A stretch of DNA of 58,843 bases from Candidatus Wolfebacteria bacterium (GCA_022616195.1 JAKEFG010000001.1:1-58843), one strand, 5' to 3'; positions 10,440 to 55,969 are shown, counted from the first letter of the stretch. Numbers and translations: made by a program. Notes: generated from the sequence alone by a model not told the origin.

Positions 10440-11777
10440 TCAAAGTAATGCGCGTATCTGATTAATCTCTTGCTCGAGCTCTGTGTCGGTACCCAGCTCC
10501 CGTTTTATTTTTTCATATGAGTGGATAACGGTTGTGTGGTCGCGGTTACCAATTTTTTGGCCAATCGCTGGGTAGGGCAGACTGAAGTCCTCACGAAGAA
10601 TATACATGATAAGCTGGCGCGGCTTCACAACCTCCTTCTTGCGTGTTTTCTTGTACACACTCTCCTCATCAATGTTGTAGAAATCAGCTATTACCCGCAC
10701 CACGTCTTTAACAGGAATAATACGTCTCGGCCGGAGATTGTTTTTGAGAAGCGTCTTAACCTCACCCAGAGAGAGCTCTCGTTGTTTTAGTTGGCACTGG
10801 CACACTAGTGTATTGAGCGCCCCCTCAAGCTCTCGAACATTGCCGTCTATAGTTGCCGCGAGGTGGTCAAGCACCTCGTCGTTGAACGAAAACCCAAGAA
10901 GCCCCGACTTCGCCTTAAGAATAGCCACCCGGGACTCCTTGTCGGGGGCTCCAATGTCGACGATCATGCCGGCATTAAATCGTGATTTGAGCCGCTCCTC
11001 TAGGTTGGGGATATAGTTTGGATGCTGGTCCGACGAAAAAACAATCTGACGGTTACTGTCGTACAGTGTGTTAAAAAGATGAAACAACTCCTCCTGCATT
11101 TTCTCCTTGTGTGAGAGGAACTGAACATCATCCATGATGAACACATCATATTTACGATACTTTTCCTTGAACGCATTAACTTTGTTTGATTGGAGGGCGT
11201 TGACAAGCTCCTGACTAAATTTTTCCGATGTGATATAAAAAACCTTTTTGTTGGGATAATTTTTTTTCACGACATTTCCAACTCCTTGGATCAAATGAGT
11301 TTTACCATACCCTGTTCTTCCATATACAAATAGCGGGTTGTATGAGGTACCAAGATTTTTGATTACCTGTTGCGCGGCGGCATACGCAAGTTCATTGAAC
11401 GAGCCAACAACGAACGAGTCGAAAACATAACGTGGATTAAGGTTATCTTCCTTGTTGATGTACAGGTCCTGTAGGGGCAATGCTCCTGGTGTGGGTGGGA
11501 GTGTGTGCGTGTCTTCAACCTGGTCATGTTTTCGTCGGGACACAACATACTCAAGCGACCGCACATCACCCACGAACGAACGTAGAGTTTTAAGAAGTAG
11601 AGCGTGGTATTTGCTGGAAACCCACTCTTTAACAAATTGGTTGGGAAGTGACAGATATACCACCCCGTCCTCTTGTTTCGATATATATGCGTCCTTGAAC
11701 CACGTTGTAAAATTAGCTTTTGAGATACCACCCTCAATCTCGGCGAGCGCGAGCACCCACAACTCTTTGTTGTCCAT
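10440..11777 (-). CDS. dnaA: Chromosomal replication initiator DnaA
   Basis: LNPRYVFDSFVVG, YNPLFVYG, GYGKTHL, QEELFHLFN, RDHTTVIHS. Start could instead be 11795. Confidence 0.98.
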   Translation of the reverse strand: MDNKELWVLALAEIEGGISKANFTTWFKDAYISKQEDGVVYLSLPNQFVKEWVSSKYHALLLKTLRSFVGDVRSLEYVVSRRKHDQVEDTHTLPPTPGALPLQDLYINKEDNLNPRYVFDSFVVGSFNELAYAAAQQVIKNLGTSYNPLFVYGRTGYGKTHLIQGVGNVVKKNYPNKKVFYITSEKFSQELVNALQSNKVNAFKEKYRKYDVFIMDDVQFLSHKEKMQEELFHLFNTLYDSNRQIVFSSDQHPNYIPNLEERLKSRFNAGMIVDIGAPDKESRVAILKAKSGLLGFSFNDEVLDHLAATIDGNVRELEGALNTLVCQCQLKQRELSLGEVKTLLKNNLRPRRIIPVKDVVRVIADFYNIDEESVYKKTRKKEVVKPRQLIMYILREDFSLPYPAIGQKIGNRDHTTVIHSYEKIKRELGTDTELEQEINQIRALL

Positions 11778-11880
11778 TGATTGTGTTTGTGTCATACCGG
11801 ACGGTGAGTCAACGTTTTGCATTATATACACCTCACGATTTTACGGAACTTGTACAAAAAGGACATATATGTTAATACTA

Positions 11881-11900
11881 TGTGGGCAACGTGTGGGTAA
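11881..11900. promoter_or_regulatory. DnaA-box-like pair in dnaA/rpmH divergent promoter region
   Basis: TGTGGGCAA at 11881 and TGTGGGTAA at 11892. Confidence 0.5.
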
Positions 11901-16566: not shown

Positions 16567-18408
16567 CTATGGCGCCGCCGGTGCTTCAAGCGGCTGTCGA
16601 CTTATGCCGCCTTGCTCCGCCCGCGCTTTTCTGATGGCGAGGATCTGCGACGGGTCGGAAGTGATTATCTGGTCTTCGGTATATGAGGCGATGATTTTAA
16701 TGGCGACGTGTTTGAGCCCCGCGAAGAAAATCCCTTCACCAGTATTTGACTCAAGCAGAAGATACTTTTCCTCATCGGTGAGATTGAATGTCCGCTGCAC
16801 CTGGTCTATGGATGTCGGCGACTGTTTGAGAAGAAGTTGGAGGGCAGAGTTGGTAATGATGGGAAGTCCATAGGGAGAGTTCAGAAAGTCACTTACGTCT
16901 TGGGTGATGGTAGCGAGCCCCACGTTATACTTACGTCCGCGCTTGGCAAGACCAAAAAGAAAAGATGCTGTGTCCTCCGACTGCATCATCCAGTGTGCCT
17001 CGTCCACAACCACGAGTTGTTTGCGAAGATCGCGACGCACCGTATTCCAGATGAAGTGTGTAACAATGTACATTGCGACAGGCTTGAGCTCGTCCTCCAT
17101 GTCGCGCAACGAAAAGACAATGAAGCGCTTGTTAATATCTACGTTTGTCGGACGATTAATGAAGCCAGCCCATGTGCCGCGGGTGTATTTTGACAGCCGC
17201 TGAGCGAGCGACTCACCACCCTCCATACCGGAGAGCACGAGCTCAAAATCAGAGAGCAAAGGCGGTTCAATACCAGTAAAATCATTCTCGCCAGTGATGT
17301 CCTTTAAGGCGTAGGTTTCTGTAATCGCGCGGTCAATCATGGAGTCCTCCTCGGGTGAGAGTCCGCCGAGCATAATGCGAAAGAGCCCGACTAGGGTTAC
17401 GATATGCGAACGAAGGATGTTCGTAGGGTCTTCATCGGCGGTAACTGGCGGGAGATCAAACGGGTTGATGTGGTGGTCACCGGCGATCGAGATATTGAAG
17501 TGCCTGCCGCCGGCGGCTTCCGCCATGTACTCATATTCGCGCTCCGGGTCAATCACGATAACACTCGTGTCGAACATGAGCGAACGGAGCACCTCAAGCT
17601 TCGTTGTGTATGACTTGCCAGCGCCGGAGGTCGCAAAGATGACCGAGTTGTAGTTTGGGAGCGAGAATCGGTCAAAGAGGACCAAACTGGAGTTGTGTCG
17701 ATTGATGCCGTAAAGAATTCCTTTGTCCGAGGTGAGGTCAAAGGAGACGAATGGGAAGAGTGAGGAGAGTGGAGAGGTGTTGAGTTTGGAGTATACTTTG
17801 AGTTCATCTTTTGCGATCGGGAGCACGCTCTGGAACCCCTGTTCTTGCTGGAAAAGTGCCGGCCGGATGTAGATCAGTTTCGACTCAAGTATTGATTTAA
17901 TCTGAGACTCCACTTTATCCAATTCGTCATCACTTGACCCATAGATGGCTATGTAGAGTCCAACATCAAAAAGTTTCTCGGTTGCTTGTTGGAGCTGATC
18001 GCGCAGGTTCTCAAGGTCTTGGTATGCAGTGTCGAGCATCGGATCGCGCACCAGCCCTTTCTCTTCACGGATGTTGATTTGACTCTGCACCTCGGCAACT
18101 TTTTTTCTGAACTCCTTGAGAACACGTGAGGTTTCCACTGGCTGTATCACAATTGATATATCGAAAACACGATCGAGATTAATGATAGGCGAGAACCAGT
18201 TATCCGAGAGAAACCGCGGATAGGATATGACAAAGAATGACCGGACGATTTTTTCACCCAGGTCCAGCTGACGGGGTGAGATTTTGAGCGCCGGGGGCGC
18301 AATGATGTCGCGAAGCTCAAGCACACCCGCCTCATAGATGTCTTTTGGGAGGATTGGTGCGATGTCGGACCGCCTTTCTTTTTTCTTTAGAAAATCAAAA
18401 AGTGCCAT
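16567..18408 (-). CDS. virB4: VirB4/TraC-like conjugative ATPase
   Basis: ATSGAGKS Walker A, VIDPEREY, INPFDL, VVVDEAH Walker B, KRGRKYN, ITQ. Confidence 0.9.
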   Translation of the reverse strand: MALFDFLKKKERRSDIAPILPKDIYEAGVLELRDIIAPPALKISPRQLDLGEKIVRSFFVISYPRFLSDNWFSPIINLDRVFDISIVIQPVETSRVLKEFRKKVAEVQSQINIREEKGLVRDPMLDTAYQDLENLRDQLQQATEKLFDVGLYIAIYGSSDDELDKVESQIKSILESKLIYIRPALFQQEQGFQSVLPIAKDELKVYSKLNTSPLSSLFPFVSFDLTSDKGILYGINRHNSSLVLFDRFSLPNYNSVIFATSGAGKSYTTKLEVLRSLMFDTSVIVIDPEREYEYMAEAAGGRHFNISIAGDHHINPFDLPPVTADEDPTNILRSHIVTLVGLFRIMLGGLSPEEDSMIDRAITETYALKDITGENDFTGIEPPLLSDFELVLSGMEGGESLAQRLSKYTRGTWAGFINRPTNVDINKRFIVFSLRDMEDELKPVAMYIVTHFIWNTVRRDLRKQLVVVDEAHWMMQSEDTASFLFGLAKRGRKYNVGLATITQDVSDFLNSPYGLPIITNSALQLLLKQSPTSIDQVQRTFNLTDEEKYLLLESNTGEGIFFAGLKHVAIKIIASYTEDQIITSDPSQILAIRKARAEQGGISRQPLEAPAAP

Positions 18409-50541: not shown

Positions 50542-51324
50542 ATGCAGTTGGTGTCATGGAATGTCAACGGCCTCCGGGCTCTCCACAGTCAGGGCTACTG
50601 GGAATGGTTTGAGAAAAACAAACCGGATGTTTTCTGCCTGCAGGAAATAAAGGCGGAGGAACAGCAACTGCCGCCTGAAGTGCAGAGACCGGAAGGTTAC
50701 TCTGCGTATTTCAACTCTTCCCGAGGGCGTAAAGGGTACAGCGGTGTTGCGACATACACTAAAACAGAGCCGAAAGGAGTTCAGTACGATGTACTTCCGG
50801 AAAAGTTCAATACCGAAGGGCGCCTCATAGAAACGCGGTTCAAGGATTTTGTGTTGCTCAACGTCTACTTCCCGATGGGTGGTCGCGGCAATGGTCCCGA
50901 AGCAGACCGGGTGAAATTTAAATTGGAATTTTATGATGCATTTTTGGAGCATATTGAAGACCTACGCTCGCAGGGGGACTCCGTTGTTTTTTGCGGTGAC
51001 GTCAACACCGCCCACGAAGAGATTGACATTGCCCGTGCCAAGGAGAACGCGGACCATACAGGGTTTCTTCCCGAGGAGCGCGCCTGGATTGATGAACTTA
51101 TTTCCGCGGGATACATTGACACATTCAGACATTTTCATCCTAACAAGCGCGAGGCGTATACATACTGGGACGTGGTGACTAGATCCCGCGACAGAAATAT
51201 CGGCTGGCGCATTGACTATTTTTTCGTGAGTCCTGACCTTGTGCCGAAGGTTAAAAAGTCAGAAATTCTTTCGGATGTCTACGGCTCCGACCACTGCCCG
51301 ATTGTTCTTGAGCTTGATTTGTAA
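50542..51324 (+). CDS. xth: Exodeoxyribonuclease III
   Basis: SWNVNGLRA, CLQEIK, GYSGVA, GDVNTAH, GWRIDY, SDHCP. Confidence 0.97.
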   Translation: MQLVSWNVNGLRALHSQGYWEWFEKNKPDVFCLQEIKAEEQQLPPEVQRPEGYSAYFNSSRGRKGYSGVATYTKTEPKGVQYDVLPEKFNTEGRLIETRFKDFVLLNVYFPMGGRGNGPEADRVKFKLEFYDAFLEHIEDLRSQGDSVVFCGDVNTAHEEIDIARAKENADHTGFLPEERAWIDELISAGYIDTFRHFHPNKREAYTYWDVVTRSRDRNIGWRIDYFFVSPDLVPKVKKSEILSDVYGSDHCPIVLELDL

Positions 51325-51864
51325 AGGACAGTTGTCCACACCAATGTCCTTTACAAAAAAGACATGTCCTTTAGAATTATCCCAGGATCGCGGGGGCCAC
51401 GATGTCCTTTAGGAATCTCCAGAAGGACACATCCCGCTCTGCGGGAAACAACAAAATAAAACCCCACAAACTACTCTAGGTGGCTCCCACGGAAGTGGTT
51501 CTTTGAGAGTCTCGAGACTCGAAAAGATCGTCTGGGAGTTGCTATCCAGGGCTACACACTCTCTCAAACACACAAAAACCTTAAAACTTTAGGTTTGTGT
51601 GCCTGGATGGACAGCTTTCTGGACACTTCTTTTCCCCACTGTGTCCGCCCAGTGAAAAAAGTGAGGCGGTAAACCGCCTTGTTACACGTGAAACCTCCAC
51701 CCACGAGTAGCTCCGGCGGTTTTTGCATTTGGGGTTGTTTCACAGGAAACATCTCAAGGCGGGCAAATGCTTACTGACAACGTAGAGCGAGAGAAGCGAG
51801 CTCCAGTACACAGGGCTTGGTTCCACTGAGGTCACCACCGAAGTGCCCCGTGGTTACATACCCT

Positions 51865-53394
51865 TTACTCAACCCAGTGTTTCCCGCGTATTTTCTTCAC
51901 CTCTTTTTCCTCTTCCTCCTCGCGACGTTCCTCACCGGCTTTCCCAAGTTTTCTAAGCTCGTTGTCGGAAAGTTTTATGAGTTCCAGAGTCCTTTTTTCA
52001 AGGTATTCGGGCGTGTTGTTGGCCGGGTCATCCAGGATCTCCTCAAGGAGCGCATGGAGAATCCACCCCACTCGCGGTCCGGGTGTTTCATGTGTAACCT
52101 CCATAATCCGTGAACCGTCAATTTTAAGCATTCCCACCGAGACGGGGTCTCTGCTCACTTCTTCAATCATCGCCTGGTATTTCCGAAATCGATAGGGTTT
52201 TTCCTTGGGGCGTCCTGTGCCGATACGATCGGCCACACGGAGATTCATGAGGTCTGAAACGTTCTCATACCCGACGTTTCGCATGAGACGTCGGACAGCG
52301 GAGTGGGTTATTTGCTCGGTGTCAGAGAAGAACATGTGCCAGCGGACGAGCTTATATACCTTGTCTATGACGGCGCTGGCGAATTTAAGCCGCTGTAGAG
52401 CCGTTTTGGCGATTCTTGCACCCGCAACCTCATGCCCGTGGAACGACCAGTCGTTTTTCTTATCCTCCCAAGCTCGTGCCTTTGGTTTTGCGCTGTCGTG
52501 AAATAGTGCCGCAAGGCGAACCTCAAGCTCCCACTTCTTGTCAGCCGTTGCCTGAAGTGTGCGCAAACCATGTTCCCAGACGGTATACGAGTGCGCCTGG
52601 TTTTGTTCTACCCCGATTCCCCACTCAATTTCGGGAAGAATGTAGTGCAGAAGTCCTAATTCATGGGCGAGTTCGAGGCCGGATTTTGGGTTATCCGACA
52701 TAATAATCTTCACAAACTCATCCCGGACACGTTCTTTGGCCACTGCGTCTATGTTTTGGGCCATTTTTTTGATTGCTTCTCCTGTTTCACGGGAAACAGT
52801 AAACCCAAGCTCGGTTGCTAAGCGGACGGCACGGAGTATACGCAAAGCATCTTCGCCAAATCTGTCTTCCGGTCTTCCCACCGTTCGTATGGTTTTGTCC
52901 TTTATGTCCTTTATGCCGCCAAAGAGGTCAACCAAATGTCCTTTAGGGCTGTCCTTTTCGGTGCTGAACCCGTCAATGTCCTTTGCTCCCACAGGGAGTC
53001 CGAGCGCGACGGCGTTTATGGTAAAATCACGTCGCTTGAGATCGTCCTCAAGCTTTGAGCTGAACGAGACGTTATCTGGATGTCTGCTATCGGAGTACGT
53101 TGATTCAAGCCGGTATGTCGTTACCTCTATGGTTTTGAGGGTTGGGTCGTTCGTGTTGTCGTTGACGACTCCCACGGTCCCGAACTCGTTTTCGTAGAAA
53201 GCATGTTCAAAAAGCCCCTGAATTTGTTCAGGTCGTGCGTTCGTGGTGATGTCCCAGTCCTTTGGTTTTTCCCCGCGCAAAAGGTCCCGGACGCATCCGC
53301 CGACAAGATATGCCTCAAAACCGGCATTTTGAAGGGTGTCAGAGACCAGGCGTACCTCTTCAAAAATCTTTATTTTTTGGGTGTTTTTTGGCAC
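51865..53394 (-). CDS. cca: CCA-adding tRNA nucleotidyltransferase with HD domain
   Basis: YLVGGCVRD, DWD, RRDFTINA, EDALRILRAVR, ERVRDE, FHDSAK. GTG start chosen because a longer ORF would overlap a tRNA. Confidence 0.93.
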   Translation of the reverse strand: MPKNTQKIKIFEEVRLVSDTLQNAGFEAYLVGGCVRDLLRGEKPKDWDITTNARPEQIQGLFEHAFYENEFGTVGVVNDNTNDPTLKTIEVTTYRLESTYSDSRHPDNVSFSSKLEDDLKRRDFTINAVALGLPVGAKDIDGFSTEKDSPKGHLVDLFGGIKDIKDKTIRTVGRPEDRFGEDALRILRAVRLATELGFTVSRETGEAIKKMAQNIDAVAKERVRDEFVKIIMSDNPKSGLELAHELGLLHYILPEIEWGIGVEQNQAHSYTVWEHGLRTLQATADKKWELEVRLAALFHDSAKPKARAWEDKKNDWSFHGHEVAGARIAKTALQRLKFASAVIDKVYKLVRWHMFFSDTEQITHSAVRRLMRNVGYENVSDLMNLRVADRIGTGRPKEKPYRFRKYQAMIEEVSRDPVSVGMLKIDGSRIMEVTHETPGPRVGWILHALLEEILDDPANNTPEYLEKRTLELIKLSDNELRKLGKAGEERREEEEEKEVKKIRGKHWVE

Positions 53395-53453
53395 AGATGC
53401 ATTGTAGAACACCTTTTGCCTGCGGTCTATTTTGACGCTATGATGGTGTGTTC

Positions 53454-53525
53454 GCTCCCGTGGTGAAACGGATATCATATCTGCCTTCGAAGCAGCAGTT
53501 CCAGGTTCGAATCCTGGCGGGAGCA
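53454..53525 (+). tRNA. tRNA-Arg(TCG)
   Basis: GCTCCCG/CGGGAGC acceptor stem; anticodon loop CTTCGAA; GTTCGAATC T-loop. Confidence 0.88.
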
Positions 53526-53570
53526 CACTAGAAAGTCGAGAGTGCTCGTGTATAATTACTCACGCTTCAA

Positions 53571-53644
53571 GCGGGCATGGTTTAGTGGTAGAACACGTCC
53601 TTGCCAAGGACGAGACGGGAGTTCGATTCTCCCTGCCCGCACCA
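53571..53644 (+). tRNA. tRNA-Gly(GCC)
   Basis: GCGGGCA/TGCCCGC stem, loop TTGCCAA, encoded CCA. Confidence 0.95.
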
Positions 53645-53762
53645 ACGAGGGATTTTTGTTTGTGTCCTTTTAATAATCCCCAAACTATGGGAACAAAGCG
53701 ACAAAAACACAAAATATTGGGGATAACTCTGTGAGTATGTGTAAAAGACATGTCCGTTAGAA

Positions 53763-53804
53763 ACTAAAAACTAAGGACTAAAAACTAAGGACTAAAAACT
53801 TAAA
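53763..53804 (+). repeat. Six tandem heptamers, ACTAAAA/ACTAAGG
   Basis: ACTAAAA ACTAAGG ACTAAAA ACTAAGG ACTAAAA ACTTAAA. Confidence 0.85.
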
Positions 53805-53874
53805 ACACTCTTACACAGAGCCATATTTGTCAAAAAGACGTCCTTTATGTGTTAATTGTTTCATGTGAAACGTT

Positions 53875-54282
53875 ATGAGGACTGAAAAGAGGTTTATCGG
53901 AGACATTGGGGAGGAGGTTGCCTGTCGGTTTCTCAAGAAAAAAGGGTATAACATCATTGAGCGGAACTATCTCAAAAAATGGGGTGAGATTGACATTATT
54001 GCACGCAAGTCGGGCGAACTACACTTTGTTGAGGTAAAAACGGTGCAGTCAAAAGTTGAAAGTTCAAAGTCCAAGAATGTTTCACAGGAAACGGAAGGGT
54101 ACCGCCCGGAGGAAAACGTGCACCCGGCAAAGCTCAAGCGTCTCGCCCGAACCGTGGAGACCTATCTATTGGACAAAGGCGTATCGGACAGTGTGCCGTG
54201 GCAAATTGATGTGGTAACTGTTCTCTTGGATCTAAAGGACAAAAAGGCGAAGGTGGATATGCTTGAAAATGTTATTTTGTGA
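53875..54282 (+). CDS. yraN: YraN (UPF0102) endonuclease-like protein
   Basis: GDIGEEVA..GYNIIERN..GEIDIIA..HFVEVKT. Confidence 0.92.
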   Translation: MRTEKRFIGDIGEEVACRFLKKKGYNIIERNYLKKWGEIDIIARKSGELHFVEVKTVQSKVESSKSKNVSQETEGYRPEENVHPAKLKRLARTVETYLLDKGVSDSVPWQIDVVTVLLDLKDKKAKVDMLENVIL

Positions 54283-54355
54283 TGAAAAAGAAAAGAACCC
54301 GTTTTACGTCCCCCGCCGTGGCGGGGTGGGTTCGTGACAGGGTTACTGGCCTGGT

Positions 54356-55060
54356 TCACGGTTCTCGGACAAGGAATCGAGTTTTTCTGTACCAACCTTT
54401 TTCTTTTTGGTTGTATTCCTCGTACTGGTGTGCACCGACGGCCAGAACGGCGCCATACTCATCACCACAAACCCCCAAGAACTTTGTTGAGTTCTCTCCT
54501 TCCCACAGCGGGGCGTCGGACTCTTGCCCGGGGGCGATGATGGGCCAGTCAGAAAGGCTGACATGTATTTGGTAAAACCCAACCAACTCATGCGCTCTTG
54601 CGAGTAGGCGGCCTCTCTCGTTAGCTAGTCGCTTGAGCTCCTCCTGTGTGACGGGCCGGTTGAAGTTCCAGAATCGAAAACGCACAAGCTCCTTTCCTTG
54701 CCCGTTGCTTGGAAACATTGCGTCTAGCGAGAGATGCTGCGGAATTTTCCTTGTTGAGGTTGAGAGGCGAAGGGTTCGGCTCGCAGCGATCTTTTCCACG
54801 AGTGTGGTGTCATGGTCGATCTCTGTCTCAAAGACGTCGCTTTCGTAGTCAACACGCGGGAGCCAGCCTATGTACTCTCTGACGAATGCCCCGGCTGCGC
54901 TTTCCATGCCATCTCTTGACTGCCCCTTAAGGAGTTCTAGAAGCTCCAGTCGCCGAGCGTCGACCCCCTCCACCTTCATTGCCTCAACGAGCACCCCTCT
55001 CAACGTCTCCAACCAGAGGTCGCTTGTTTCGGGATGCTCTAGGTCAAGATACTTCTTCAT
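54356..55060 (-). CDS. Orphan hypothetical protein
   Basis: GGAGG SD before MKKYLDL; C-terminal W..KTRFLV. Confidence 0.7.
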   Translation of the reverse strand: MKKYLDLEHPETSDLWLETLRGVLVEAMKVEGVDARRLELLELLKGQSRDGMESAAGAFVREYIGWLPRVDYESDVFETEIDHDTTLVEKIAASRTLRLSTSTRKIPQHLSLDAMFPSNGQGKELVRFRFWNFNRPVTQEELKRLANERGRLLARAHELVGFYQIHVSLSDWPIIAPGQESDAPLWEGENSTKFLGVCGDEYGAVLAVGAHQYEEYNQKEKGWYRKTRFLVREP

Positions 55061-55225: not shown

Positions 55226-55969
55226 ATGCAACAGACAAACTCCGCAATAAAAGCCCTTGGTCTCTCTGATATGGAAGCGGAAGTGTACCTTGCCGCCCTT
55301 GAGCTTGGCGAGGGAACCATGCAGGCGCTTGCAAAAAAGTCGGGAGTGAACCGTTCAACAATTTATACCTTTATTGATGAACTCAAAGAGCGGGGGTTCA
55401 TTACGGAAACGAAGCGCGGAAAACGACGGTTGTATGTTGCAACTAACCCCGAGCGTTTGGTACAAATGCAAAAAGTGCGTACTGGTGAATTGGAACGGGC
55501 ACTTCCCGAGTTGCTCGCGATCCACAATAGTGCACGTAACAAACCGAGAGTCACTTTTTATGAAGGTGTGGAGGGCATCAAAGAAATACACGCGGATATG
55601 CTGACGGCAGAACAGGAGATACAAGCATATGAGGACCTGGAGGGGTTGAAGAACAACCTCCCAGCGAGCTTTTTTGAGCAGTTTCCGAAAGAGCGTATGC
55701 GGAGGGGGATTTTATACCGCTCAATTTCTCGGGATTCAGAGACAGCTCGTGTATTTGTGAAAAATAATATTGGATTTTTACGTGAAACAAAGCTTATTAT
55801 CACGGAGCCTCTGAATATTGAGGTCAGTATCTATGGCGATAAGGTGGCACTTATGAGTCTGACATCAAATCCGCCTTTCGGCGTTTTAATTCAAGATAAA
55901 AATATCGCACAAGTGCAACGTATCATGTGGCAAGAATTGTGGAATAGGCTTGGAGAGAAAATTGGATAG
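55226..55969 (+). CDS. TrmB-family transcriptional regulator
   Basis: LGLSDMEAEVYLAALELG, HTH (NRSTIY), PRVTFYEGVEG, IYGDKVA. Confidence 0.9.
   Translation: MQQTNSAIKALGLSDMEAEVYLAALELGEGTMQALAKKSGVNRSTIYTFIDELKERGFITETKRGKRRLYVATNPERLVQMQKVRTGELERALPELLAIHNSARNKPRVTFYEGVEGIKEIHADMLTAEQEIQAYEDLEGLKNNLPASFFEQFPKERMRRGILYRSISRDSETARVFVKNNIGFLRETKLIITEPLNIEVSIYGDKVALMSLTSNPPFGVLIQDKNIAQVQRIMWQELWNRLGEKIG

Follow-up and report, generated by a model that had tools for sequence, protein, structure and literature searches.

A nine-base-pair word clustered with parS in a Wolfebacteria genome, and a winged-helix protein encoded beside ftsK as its candidate reader

The 58,843-nucleotide stretch of DNA analysed here (the window; JAKEFG010000001.1:1-58843 of assembly GCA_022616195.1, from a Candidatus Wolfebacteria bacterium) raises the question of why a second short DNA word should be packed into the same few kilobases as parS, the site bound by the partition protein ParB. 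An initial annotation had counted 11 exact copies of the octamer TGTCCTTT in 2.9 kb, noted that they share this interval with six parS sites, and proposed either a bipartite centromere or sites for a separate partition or origin protein. We find that the word is a real, conserved element that brackets the parS array and occurs at other loci as well, and its sequence contexts suggest that it is most likely the site of a lineage-specific regulator and not that of ParB. On balance, we think it probable that arrays of the 9-mer TGTCCTTTA are sites for a winged helix-turn-helix (wHTH) protein whose gene is linked to ftsK, and whose small regulon would include the centromere locus. We propose that the word co-clusters with parS because the centromere array sits inside a conserved target locus of this protein, and that ParB is not the reader of the word.

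Counts, clustering and the selected unit

The assembly (genome G000) totals 631,136 bp in 24 contigs and is 98% complete, and its contig C22 is the window; here and below, G denotes a genome, L a fetched locus, C a contig of the window's genome and f a family. The octamer occurs 13 times in exact form in the window, compared with a mean of 2.46 in shuffled sequence, and none of 100 shuffles reached 13. The interval 51323-54241 contains 11 of these copies, and the remaining two are found at 11858 and 17298, in exact agreement with the first annotation. The seven near matches reported at the same time (51357, 51422, 51988, 53256, 53743, 53751 and 53839) were all recovered at one mismatch, the pseudo-palindromes AAAAGACATGTCCTTT (51357) and AAAAGACATGTCCGTT (53743) are both in the sequence, and six parS-like 16-mers were found where six parS sites had been claimed. 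One-mismatch matches as a whole are barely enriched in the window, with 62 observed versus a shuffle mean of 50.3, a value that 4 of 100 shuffles reach.

Across the entire genome there are 59 copies of the octamer, whereas an order-3 Markov model predicts approximately 24. At the density observed outside the 2,919-bp interval, 0.22 copies would be expected within it, where 11 are found (Poisson P ~1e-15). This comparison, which had been set beforehand as a check on the annotation, places the octamer at roughly 50-fold higher density in the interval than elsewhere in the genome.

The base that follows the octamer reveals the longer unit. An A occupies this position in 16 of 19 clustered copies genome-wide versus 8 of 40 unclustered copies, which show no preference for the ninth base. 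The selected, functional unit is the 9-mer TGTCCTTTA, with the extended form TGTCCTTTA-K-A. The genome contains 24 exact copies, and 17 of them fall within three loci: eight in the parS locus (0.07 expected), six at C17 17612-18207, and three at C7 11062-11097, with the remainder single or paired. The C17 cluster coincides with a wHTH gene (17359-18138, minus strand) that diverges from ftsK, and the C7 cluster lies upstream of a surface-protein gene. The word is therefore not confined to the centromere region; its co-clustering with parS, as originally described, is real at this locus, but the same word forms two more clusters on other contigs. Single 9-mers in groEL, trmD, a histidine-kinase gene and one further open reading frame (ORF) look like background. 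Separately, a sequence of about 100 bp with one exact 9-mer terminates two contigs (C3 11989 and C4 61110); it is a repeat that broke the assembly and possibly lies upstream of rRNA genes.

A wHTH gene that carries the word

The wHTH gene divergent from ftsK carries the word within its own coding sequence. Between three and six copies of the octamer are present in this gene in each of nine genomes, four of which belong to another order (23-25% protein identity), and family f25 has six to seven word copies per locus inside the homologous gene beside ftsK. Where the nine wHTH genes encode K-G-H or K-G-Q tripeptides, all 27 occurrences are written T|AAA-GGA-CAx, with T as the last base of the codon before, whereas GGA makes up 4-54% of glycine codons and AAA 20-90% of lysine codons in the neighboring ftsK genes. 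Fixed synonymous codons against such mixed local usage indicate that selection acts on the DNA and not on the protein. The disordered linker of the wHTH protein has evidently been used as a place for writing sites.

The word also differs between lineages, and the forms found at the wHTH gene are as follows:

TGTCCTTT(A): the form described above
TGTCTTTT: family f12
TGTCCGATA: genome G102
TGACATTTA: genome G096

No locus other than the wHTH gene has its lineage's own word in each of the four variants. G102 contains 13 copies of TGTCCGATA (0 for the reversed control), including three beside the wHTH gene and two that form an inverted pair just after yraN/tRNA-Pro. G096 contains 27 copies of TGACATTTA (6 for the control), of which three are inside cca and others lie upstream of alaS; four exact 9-mers, corresponding to seven copies of the 8-mer TGACATTT, adjoin its wHTH gene. 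No variant word is present near yraN in G096, and no word is present near yraN in G017. A pair spaced by 9 bp occurs in cca of G319, and in f12 the KDIKDK codons of cca read AAAAGACA. In G102 and G096 the word co-varies between loci, with the same variant at the wHTH gene and at yraN or cca. The protein shows differences as well: in G096, which has the most divergent word, the recognition helix is HPRTILRDI versus SEKTIQRDL and the wing is altered too, and in G102 the wing reads GDNRW in place of G-x-K/R-RW.

The array of seven TGACATTT copies in G096 (L096 2949-3650) is situated between the wHTH gene and a gene for a sigma factor of the sigma-70/ECF type. Given this position, the array may also act on the promoter of the sigma-factor gene.

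The wHTH family is represented in 42 of the 101 class genomes sampled, and in lineages from several orders the gene forms a pair with ftsK. Its neighbors are ftsK and a secreted-protein gene, with no adjacent gene for a partition NTPase. The only Pfam match is a marginal one to HTH_DeoR (22.0 bits, cut-off 21) at the C-terminus, covering residues 234-277 of 296. We rejected membership of the DeoR family, in that the helix-turn-helix (HTH) is at the C-terminus rather than the N-terminus and Pfam found no DeoR sensor domain. NCBIfam returned no match above its cut-off, and the neighbors of the protein in the ESM Atlas are hypothetical proteins, mostly from Minisyncoccota. An AlphaFold model (mean pLDDT 73) consists of a four-helix bundle at residues 2-114 (pLDDT ~90), a disordered linker at 119-190 and a winged helix at 190-257. 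A Foldseek search against the PDB yielded no match at E<=0.001; the bundle weakly matches the Avd/S23p type (2gsc, 2rld, 4dwl and 8ub7; TM-score 0.74-0.84, Foldseek E 0.016-0.15), and the weak fold neighbors of the winged helix are winged helices of ArsR, MarR, Zalpha and AspA.

These features suggest a candidate binder of approximately 260 amino acids in which the N-terminal four-helix bundle would oligomerize the protein, a disordered linker rich in K, G, H and Q would follow, and a C-terminal winged helix of DeoR type would contact DNA. Several winged helices tethered in this way could occupy arrays of two to seven sites whose spacing and orientation are loose. Sites in its own gene and in the control region of ftsK would permit autoregulation and control of ftsK.

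Such an arrangement would call to mind the iteron-type centromeres that are served by small adaptor proteins, such as ParR-parC of R1, TubR-tubC, and AspA of pNOB8. Those systems likewise have short direct-repeat arrays at the binder's own gene or promoter, a small helical or winged-helix binder, cooperative binding to many sites, and autoregulation. They differ in that here no partition NTPase is encoded beside the wHTH gene, the arrays are spread over several chromosomal loci, and sites overlap the promoter of an unrelated transcript. A second comparison is with CtrA of Caulobacter and MtrA of actinobacteria, global cell-cycle regulators with sites at genes for replication, division and surface structures. 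Shared with these systems are an asymmetric site repeated at one to two helical turns or so, juxtaposition with DnaA boxes, and putative targets that include the dnaA upstream region, the ftsK region, and genes for surface or pilin-like proteins. However, the candidate lacks a receiver domain and does not belong to the OmpR type; its predicted fold combines a four-helix bundle with a C-terminal wHTH.

The parS locus and its relatives

The features of the parS locus, together with one related site upstream of dnaA, are listed here in window coordinates. We define a parS-like site as a 16-mer with one to three mismatches to the consensus TGTTTCACGTGAAACA.

50542-51324, plus strand: xth, followed by a 540-bp gap
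51322-51330, minus strand: exact 9-mer TGTCCTTTA overlapping the xth stop codon; left half of an inverted pair that flanks a DnaA-like box
51332-51340, plus strand: DnaA-like box TTGTCCACA, one mismatch to the consensus TTATCCACA
51345-51353, plus strand: exact 9-mer, right arm of the inverted pair; its 3' part plus CA is the -35 hexamer TTTACA
51350-51377, plus strand: sigma-70-like promoter TTTACA-16-TAGAAT, 10/12 consensus matches
51357 and 51422, minus strand: one-mismatch copies
51365-51373, plus strand: exact 9-mer 20 bp downstream of the 51345 copy; its 3' end begins the -10 hexamer TAGAAT
51384-51730, plus strand: putative non-coding RNA, about 340 nt long and extending from the promoter as far as ...GGCGGTTTTT
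51403-51411, plus strand: exact 9-mer, about 20 nt inside the putative transcript
51680-51695 and 51736-51751: parS-like pair, the first within the putative transcript and the second just past its predicted end
51865 to about 53400, minus strand: cca, HD-domain member of the CCA-adding/poly(A) polymerase family; two parS-like sites, 52084 and 52783
52896-52985, plus strand: five word copies in cca (9-mers at 52896, 52905 and 52937; 8-mers at 52950 and 52977)
53454-53526, plus strand: tRNA-Arg
53571-53644, plus strand: tRNA-Gly, followed by a 230-bp gap to yraN
53663-53847: module upstream of yraN, with degenerate word copies, a DnaA-like box and a 14-bp tandem repeat
53663, plus strand: TGTCCTTTT, word copy of this module
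53718, minus strand: DnaA-like TTATCCCCA, part of this module
53742, minus strand: TGTCTTTTA, word copy abutting TGTCCGTTA at 53751, plus strand
53760-53800: 14-bp tandem repeat ctaaaaactaagga, about 2.5 units, AAGGAC core in each unit (twice), between the DnaA-like box and yraN
53839, plus strand: CGTCCTTTA, word copy of this module
53875-54282, plus strand: yraN (UPF0102), with parS-like sites at 53857 (over the start codon) and 54078
54233-54241, minus strand: exact 9-mer at the yraN 3' end, codons L-K-D-K
55226-55969, plus strand: TrmB-like HTH gene, containing a seventh parS-like site
55774-55789: this parS-like site, three mismatches, inside the TrmB-like gene
11857-11900, minus strand: 8-of-9 copy TGTCCTTTT and DnaA-like box TTACCCACA, upstream of dnaA (10440-11840, minus strand)

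Six parS-like sites lie in the interval (51680, 51736, 52084, 52783, 53857 and 54078), with the seventh at 55774. Genome-wide, this locus accounts for 7 of 10 matches at three or fewer mismatches and for all four at two or fewer. Many copies of the word are intergenic.

The copies between xth and cca exhibit a specific relationship to a promoter. TTTACA-16-TAGAAT is the joint-best sigma-70 consensus match that a promoter scan found in 51200-54400, tied with 53529-53556. Its -35 element is overlapped by the 51345 copy and its -10 element by the 51365 copy; the intragenic copies do not share this property. The overlap is conserved: TGTCCTTTACA is present in 11 of 11 xth-cca intergenic loci, a second copy follows 20-22 bp downstream at the -10 position in nine of them, as TGTCCTTTACA...TGTCCTTTA(G/C/T)A, and a DnaA-like box with at most one mismatch precedes the first promoter-overlapping copy in 9 of 11, mostly by 3-5 nt and by ~13 nt in L021. 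Sites that cover both promoter elements beside a DnaA box would be well placed to repress the non-coding transcript.

The conserved non-coding unit between xth and cca, which has a strong predicted promoter, looks, from its sequence, like a transcript of approximately 300-340 nt. The putative transcripts share the blocks ACCCCACA..TCCTTGCC..TTGTTCTTT and CTTACCCCACATCC, and the conserved blocks downstream end in GGCGGCTTTTT (GGTGGCTTTTT in L021) in six of nine related loci examined. Rfam reported only tRNAs at the gathering score in the window and five related loci, and nothing credible at E<=10 for 51300-51900. RNAalifold found no consensus structure in eight copies of the putative transcript (4 pairs, -1.24 kcal/mol), although the poor alignment makes this result weakly informative. 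The transcript is not RNase P RNA, since that RNA is encoded at C7 27494-27905 (plus strand), where a candidate with 54.6 bits and E = 1.3e-16, below the Rfam gathering score of 100, is a divergent RNase P RNA.

Within cca, the word copies are read in two frames, as K-D and as K-G-H; three lie in an insertion that is absent from relatives of genus g2, and two lie at KDIKDK codons. The start codon of cca is uncertain, because a long ORF extends into tRNA-Arg. The insertion (...VGAKDIDGFSTEKDSPKGH...; 52930-52990, minus strand), which holds those three copies, occupies the place of an RRDFT(I/V/M)NA block that is conserved in 10 of 12 relatives compared over an anchor-based slice of the protein.

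To follow the word through relatives, 31 genomes of the same family and order were scanned and 20 regions were fetched. At least one exact 9-mer is present in 30 of the 31. These relatives are phylogenetically non-independent, and as a result such counts overstate independent support; the roughly independent lineages are f1 (two genera), f8, f9, f12, f16, f25, f70 and f75. Ten relatives with parS arrays were examined (L003, L006, L008, L011, L013, L016, L018, L019, L022 and L027), and in all ten the array comprises 3-7 sites in 0.33-0.70 kb, in or over yraN. An exact 9-mer lies 38-195 bp from the edge of the array in each of the ten, including one family of another order, so the enrichment near parS in related genomes, a check likewise set beforehand, holds in several families. 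In five genomes of genus g2 the nearest exact 9-mer is at the yraN 3' end, 38 bp past the last parS, and in four of these five it belongs to an inverted pair. The module upstream of yraN has homologues in L013, L016, L018 and L027. Between lineages, the distance from word to parS ranges from 38 to 308 bp, spacing and orientation are not fixed, and the word varies while parS is constant. A protein that binds the word would thereby occupy both borders of the gene that bears the parS array.

The ParB gene stands apart from the yraN array, about 300 kb away in the complete genome G003. A preprint (2024-2026) reportedly ties YraN to D-loop resolution in natural transformation.

Elsewhere, a word array is found between valS and a large surface-protein gene in seven relatives, and in the window's genome the array is upstream of such a gene. 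The promoters of aminoacyl-tRNA synthetase and surface-protein genes, along with the cca gene, would be further targets. A class-wide scan for the direct pair recovered 7 of 301 genomes (2 for the reversed control), three in the window's order, its own genome included, and four in family f25 of another order. The word occurs on both sides of the parS-bearing yraN in f25, where yraN is not beside cca. The sections of the published literature that could be consulted yielded no description of the word, of parS arrays inside yraN or of the wHTH protein, and matches there to the word or its complement resembled primer sequences in unrelated papers.

Alternative readings and implications

Several observations weigh against the wHTH protein as reader of the word. 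First, it was assigned through gene linkage and co-variation alone. Second, the helix SEKTIQRD/EL is nearly invariant in 25 of 26 family members listed, though their words differ (TGTCCTTTA, TGTCTTTT and TGTCCGATA). Third, five genomes from three other families encode the protein and have 2-10 copies of the 9-mer versus 8-13 of the reversed control. Fourth, TGTCTTTT is not enriched in f12 (67 and 84 copies versus 80 and 101 for the control); we count the co-variation in f12 weakly because the word is ordinary background there, and this evidence could reflect AT-rich codon usage. Fifth, 9-mer totals in genus g2 are often not above the reversed control (13 versus 17; 15 versus 20), and therefore the signal there is positional and not one of count. 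Sixth, simple promoter repression does not account for the copies at the yraN 3' end, in cca and in the wHTH gene. Finally, the fold matches of the protein all lie above E = 0.01, and its proposed oligomerization is taken from Avd-type bundles, which form oligomers.

A different role for the same sites is possible but doubtful, namely that the word is an accessory or boundary element of the centromere, where the site-binding protein works with ParB-parS and promoter overlap is secondary. As a roadblock, this protein might keep ParB-CTP clamps within the short array; alternatively, it might be an anchor or bridge from the origin-proximal centromere to division through ftsK. RacA-ram and Noc-NBS of Bacillus subtilis offer a comparison, being second families of origin-proximal sites that are palindromic and scattered over hundreds of kilobases. 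There too a second word, read by a protein other than ParB (here a predicted one), shares the origin-proximal region with parS, but the word described here is asymmetric, is clustered within 50-300 bp of the array, and also occurs at promoters elsewhere. A role in delimiting or insulating the ParB complex still merits consideration because many copies lie at non-promoter positions and because, in the window's lineage, parS and the word have spread jointly through 3-4 kb and into cca. It is also favored by the exact copies that border the array in all ten relatives, f25 with its separate yraN and cca among them, by the variant word with which G102 borders its own yraN, and by the pairing of the candidate binder gene with ftsK across several orders. 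Conserved arrays at loci free of parS argue the other way, as do the empty surroundings of yraN in G096 and G017, the xth-side pair that G024 retains without a parS array within the 7 kb examined, and the variable distance to parS. Contact with ParB lacks support from the analysis; a complex prediction for ParB and the wHTH protein gave a score of 0.00, which weighs neither for nor against binding.

It is unlikely, to our minds, that the element is of the proposed kind and has another binder, with the wHTH gene being one of its targets. The TrmB-like HTH protein (55226-55969) or some other regulator acting with DnaA could fill this role, given that the word is flanked closely by DnaA-like boxes in 9 of 11 xth-side promoters and also upstream of yraN and of dnaA, and that the recognition helix of the wHTH protein stays almost constant although the word varies. 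L003, L006 and L016 show synteny between the TrmB-like gene and the locus, but the gene was not found in the fetched yraN loci of f25 (L027), G102 (L069) and G027 (L061), and no copy of the word lies inside or just upstream of it, for which reasons we judged it an unlikely binder. The wHTH gene alone carries its lineage's own word in all four variants, which argues against any reader other than its product.

Far less probable is that the word is a second ParB box, as in plasmid P1, whose parS combines two types of ParB box, A and B, with an IHF site, and has both words read by one ParB in a fixed arrangement. The likeness is that two different short words are packed into one centromere region, both in the window's genome and in its relatives. 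Here, however, ParB has the chromosomal domain set (ParB_N, HTH_ParB and ParB_C, with no extra domain, a list that cannot exclude reading by the dimerization domain), the second word forms arrays far from parS, on C17 and C7, with no parS in that contig region, its spacing and orientation to parS vary, and it changes between lineages while parS does not. The bipartite centromere of the initial annotation, understood in this P1 sense, is not supported, in view of those parS-free arrays, the promoter overlap, the variable distance and the distant genome G096, which lacks the word at yraN. The other suggestion, a site for a partition or origin protein, fared better as to a protein site, but its origin part is weakened by the position of the GC-skew switch. 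G003, a genome in a single contig, has its dnaA at 544.6 kb and the turn of its cumulative GC skew at 540-550 kb, with the locus at 587-591 kb; the cumulative skew of the window agrees with this layout.

Hardly credible is a by-product of coding or composition (K-D and K-G-H peptides, codon usage) or a part of the replication origin, for although unclustered copies in coding sequence (groEL, trmD, the histidine-kinase gene) show no ninth-base preference and DnaA-like boxes are nearby, many copies are intergenic, coding copies fall in two reading frames, all 27 of the tripeptides share the same synonymous choices, and the GC-skew minimum and gene-orientation switch are at dnaA, 42-46 kb from the locus in G003.

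Three further identities were tried and rejected. The word is not a DnaA box or oriC element, as it matches TTATCCACA at 5 of 9 positions and the skew switch is at dnaA and not at the locus. Clusters of DnaA boxes outside oriC are similarly built of an asymmetric 9-mer in mixed orientation, intergenic and intragenic, and occur at the binder's own gene, but in this genome dnaA is single and canonical DnaA-like boxes stand separately beside a word that is only 5/9 identical. A KOPS-like role does not fit 24 copies of which 17 are in three clusters rather than dispersed. A second ParB-like protein (C14 75-929, minus strand; L002) has ParB_N and HTH_ParB/KorB but no ParB_C, and its gene is possibly of mobile-element origin; as a binder it was rejected, for among 17 genomes it is found only in G000, plus a weak match in G004.

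A wider prospect, which we regard as rather improbable, is that the wHTH protein belongs to a chromosome-organizing or cell-cycle system specific to Patescibacteria, in which it brackets the parS array of yraN, sits by DnaA boxes and controls ftsK. If so, one factor would couple replication, segregation and division in minimal cells, and would either set the borders of the ParB complex or shield it from transcription.

How the uncultured Patescibacteria, with their tiny genomes, regulate genes or handle their chromosomes has, to our knowledge, hardly been described. The analysis supplies a DNA word whose variants are conserved in several families, spanning two or more orders of a single class, a candidate binder of undescribed architecture, and a conserved list of putative targets: the yraN centromere locus, cca, the non-coding transcript and ftsK. 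It also offers a clear case in which invariant synonymous codons embed predicted binding sites in coding sequence. Should these sites shape the ParB complex, they would represent a centromere boundary of a new kind; otherwise, the proposed regulon of the wHTH protein would still be among the first that can be reconstructed in Patescibacteria.

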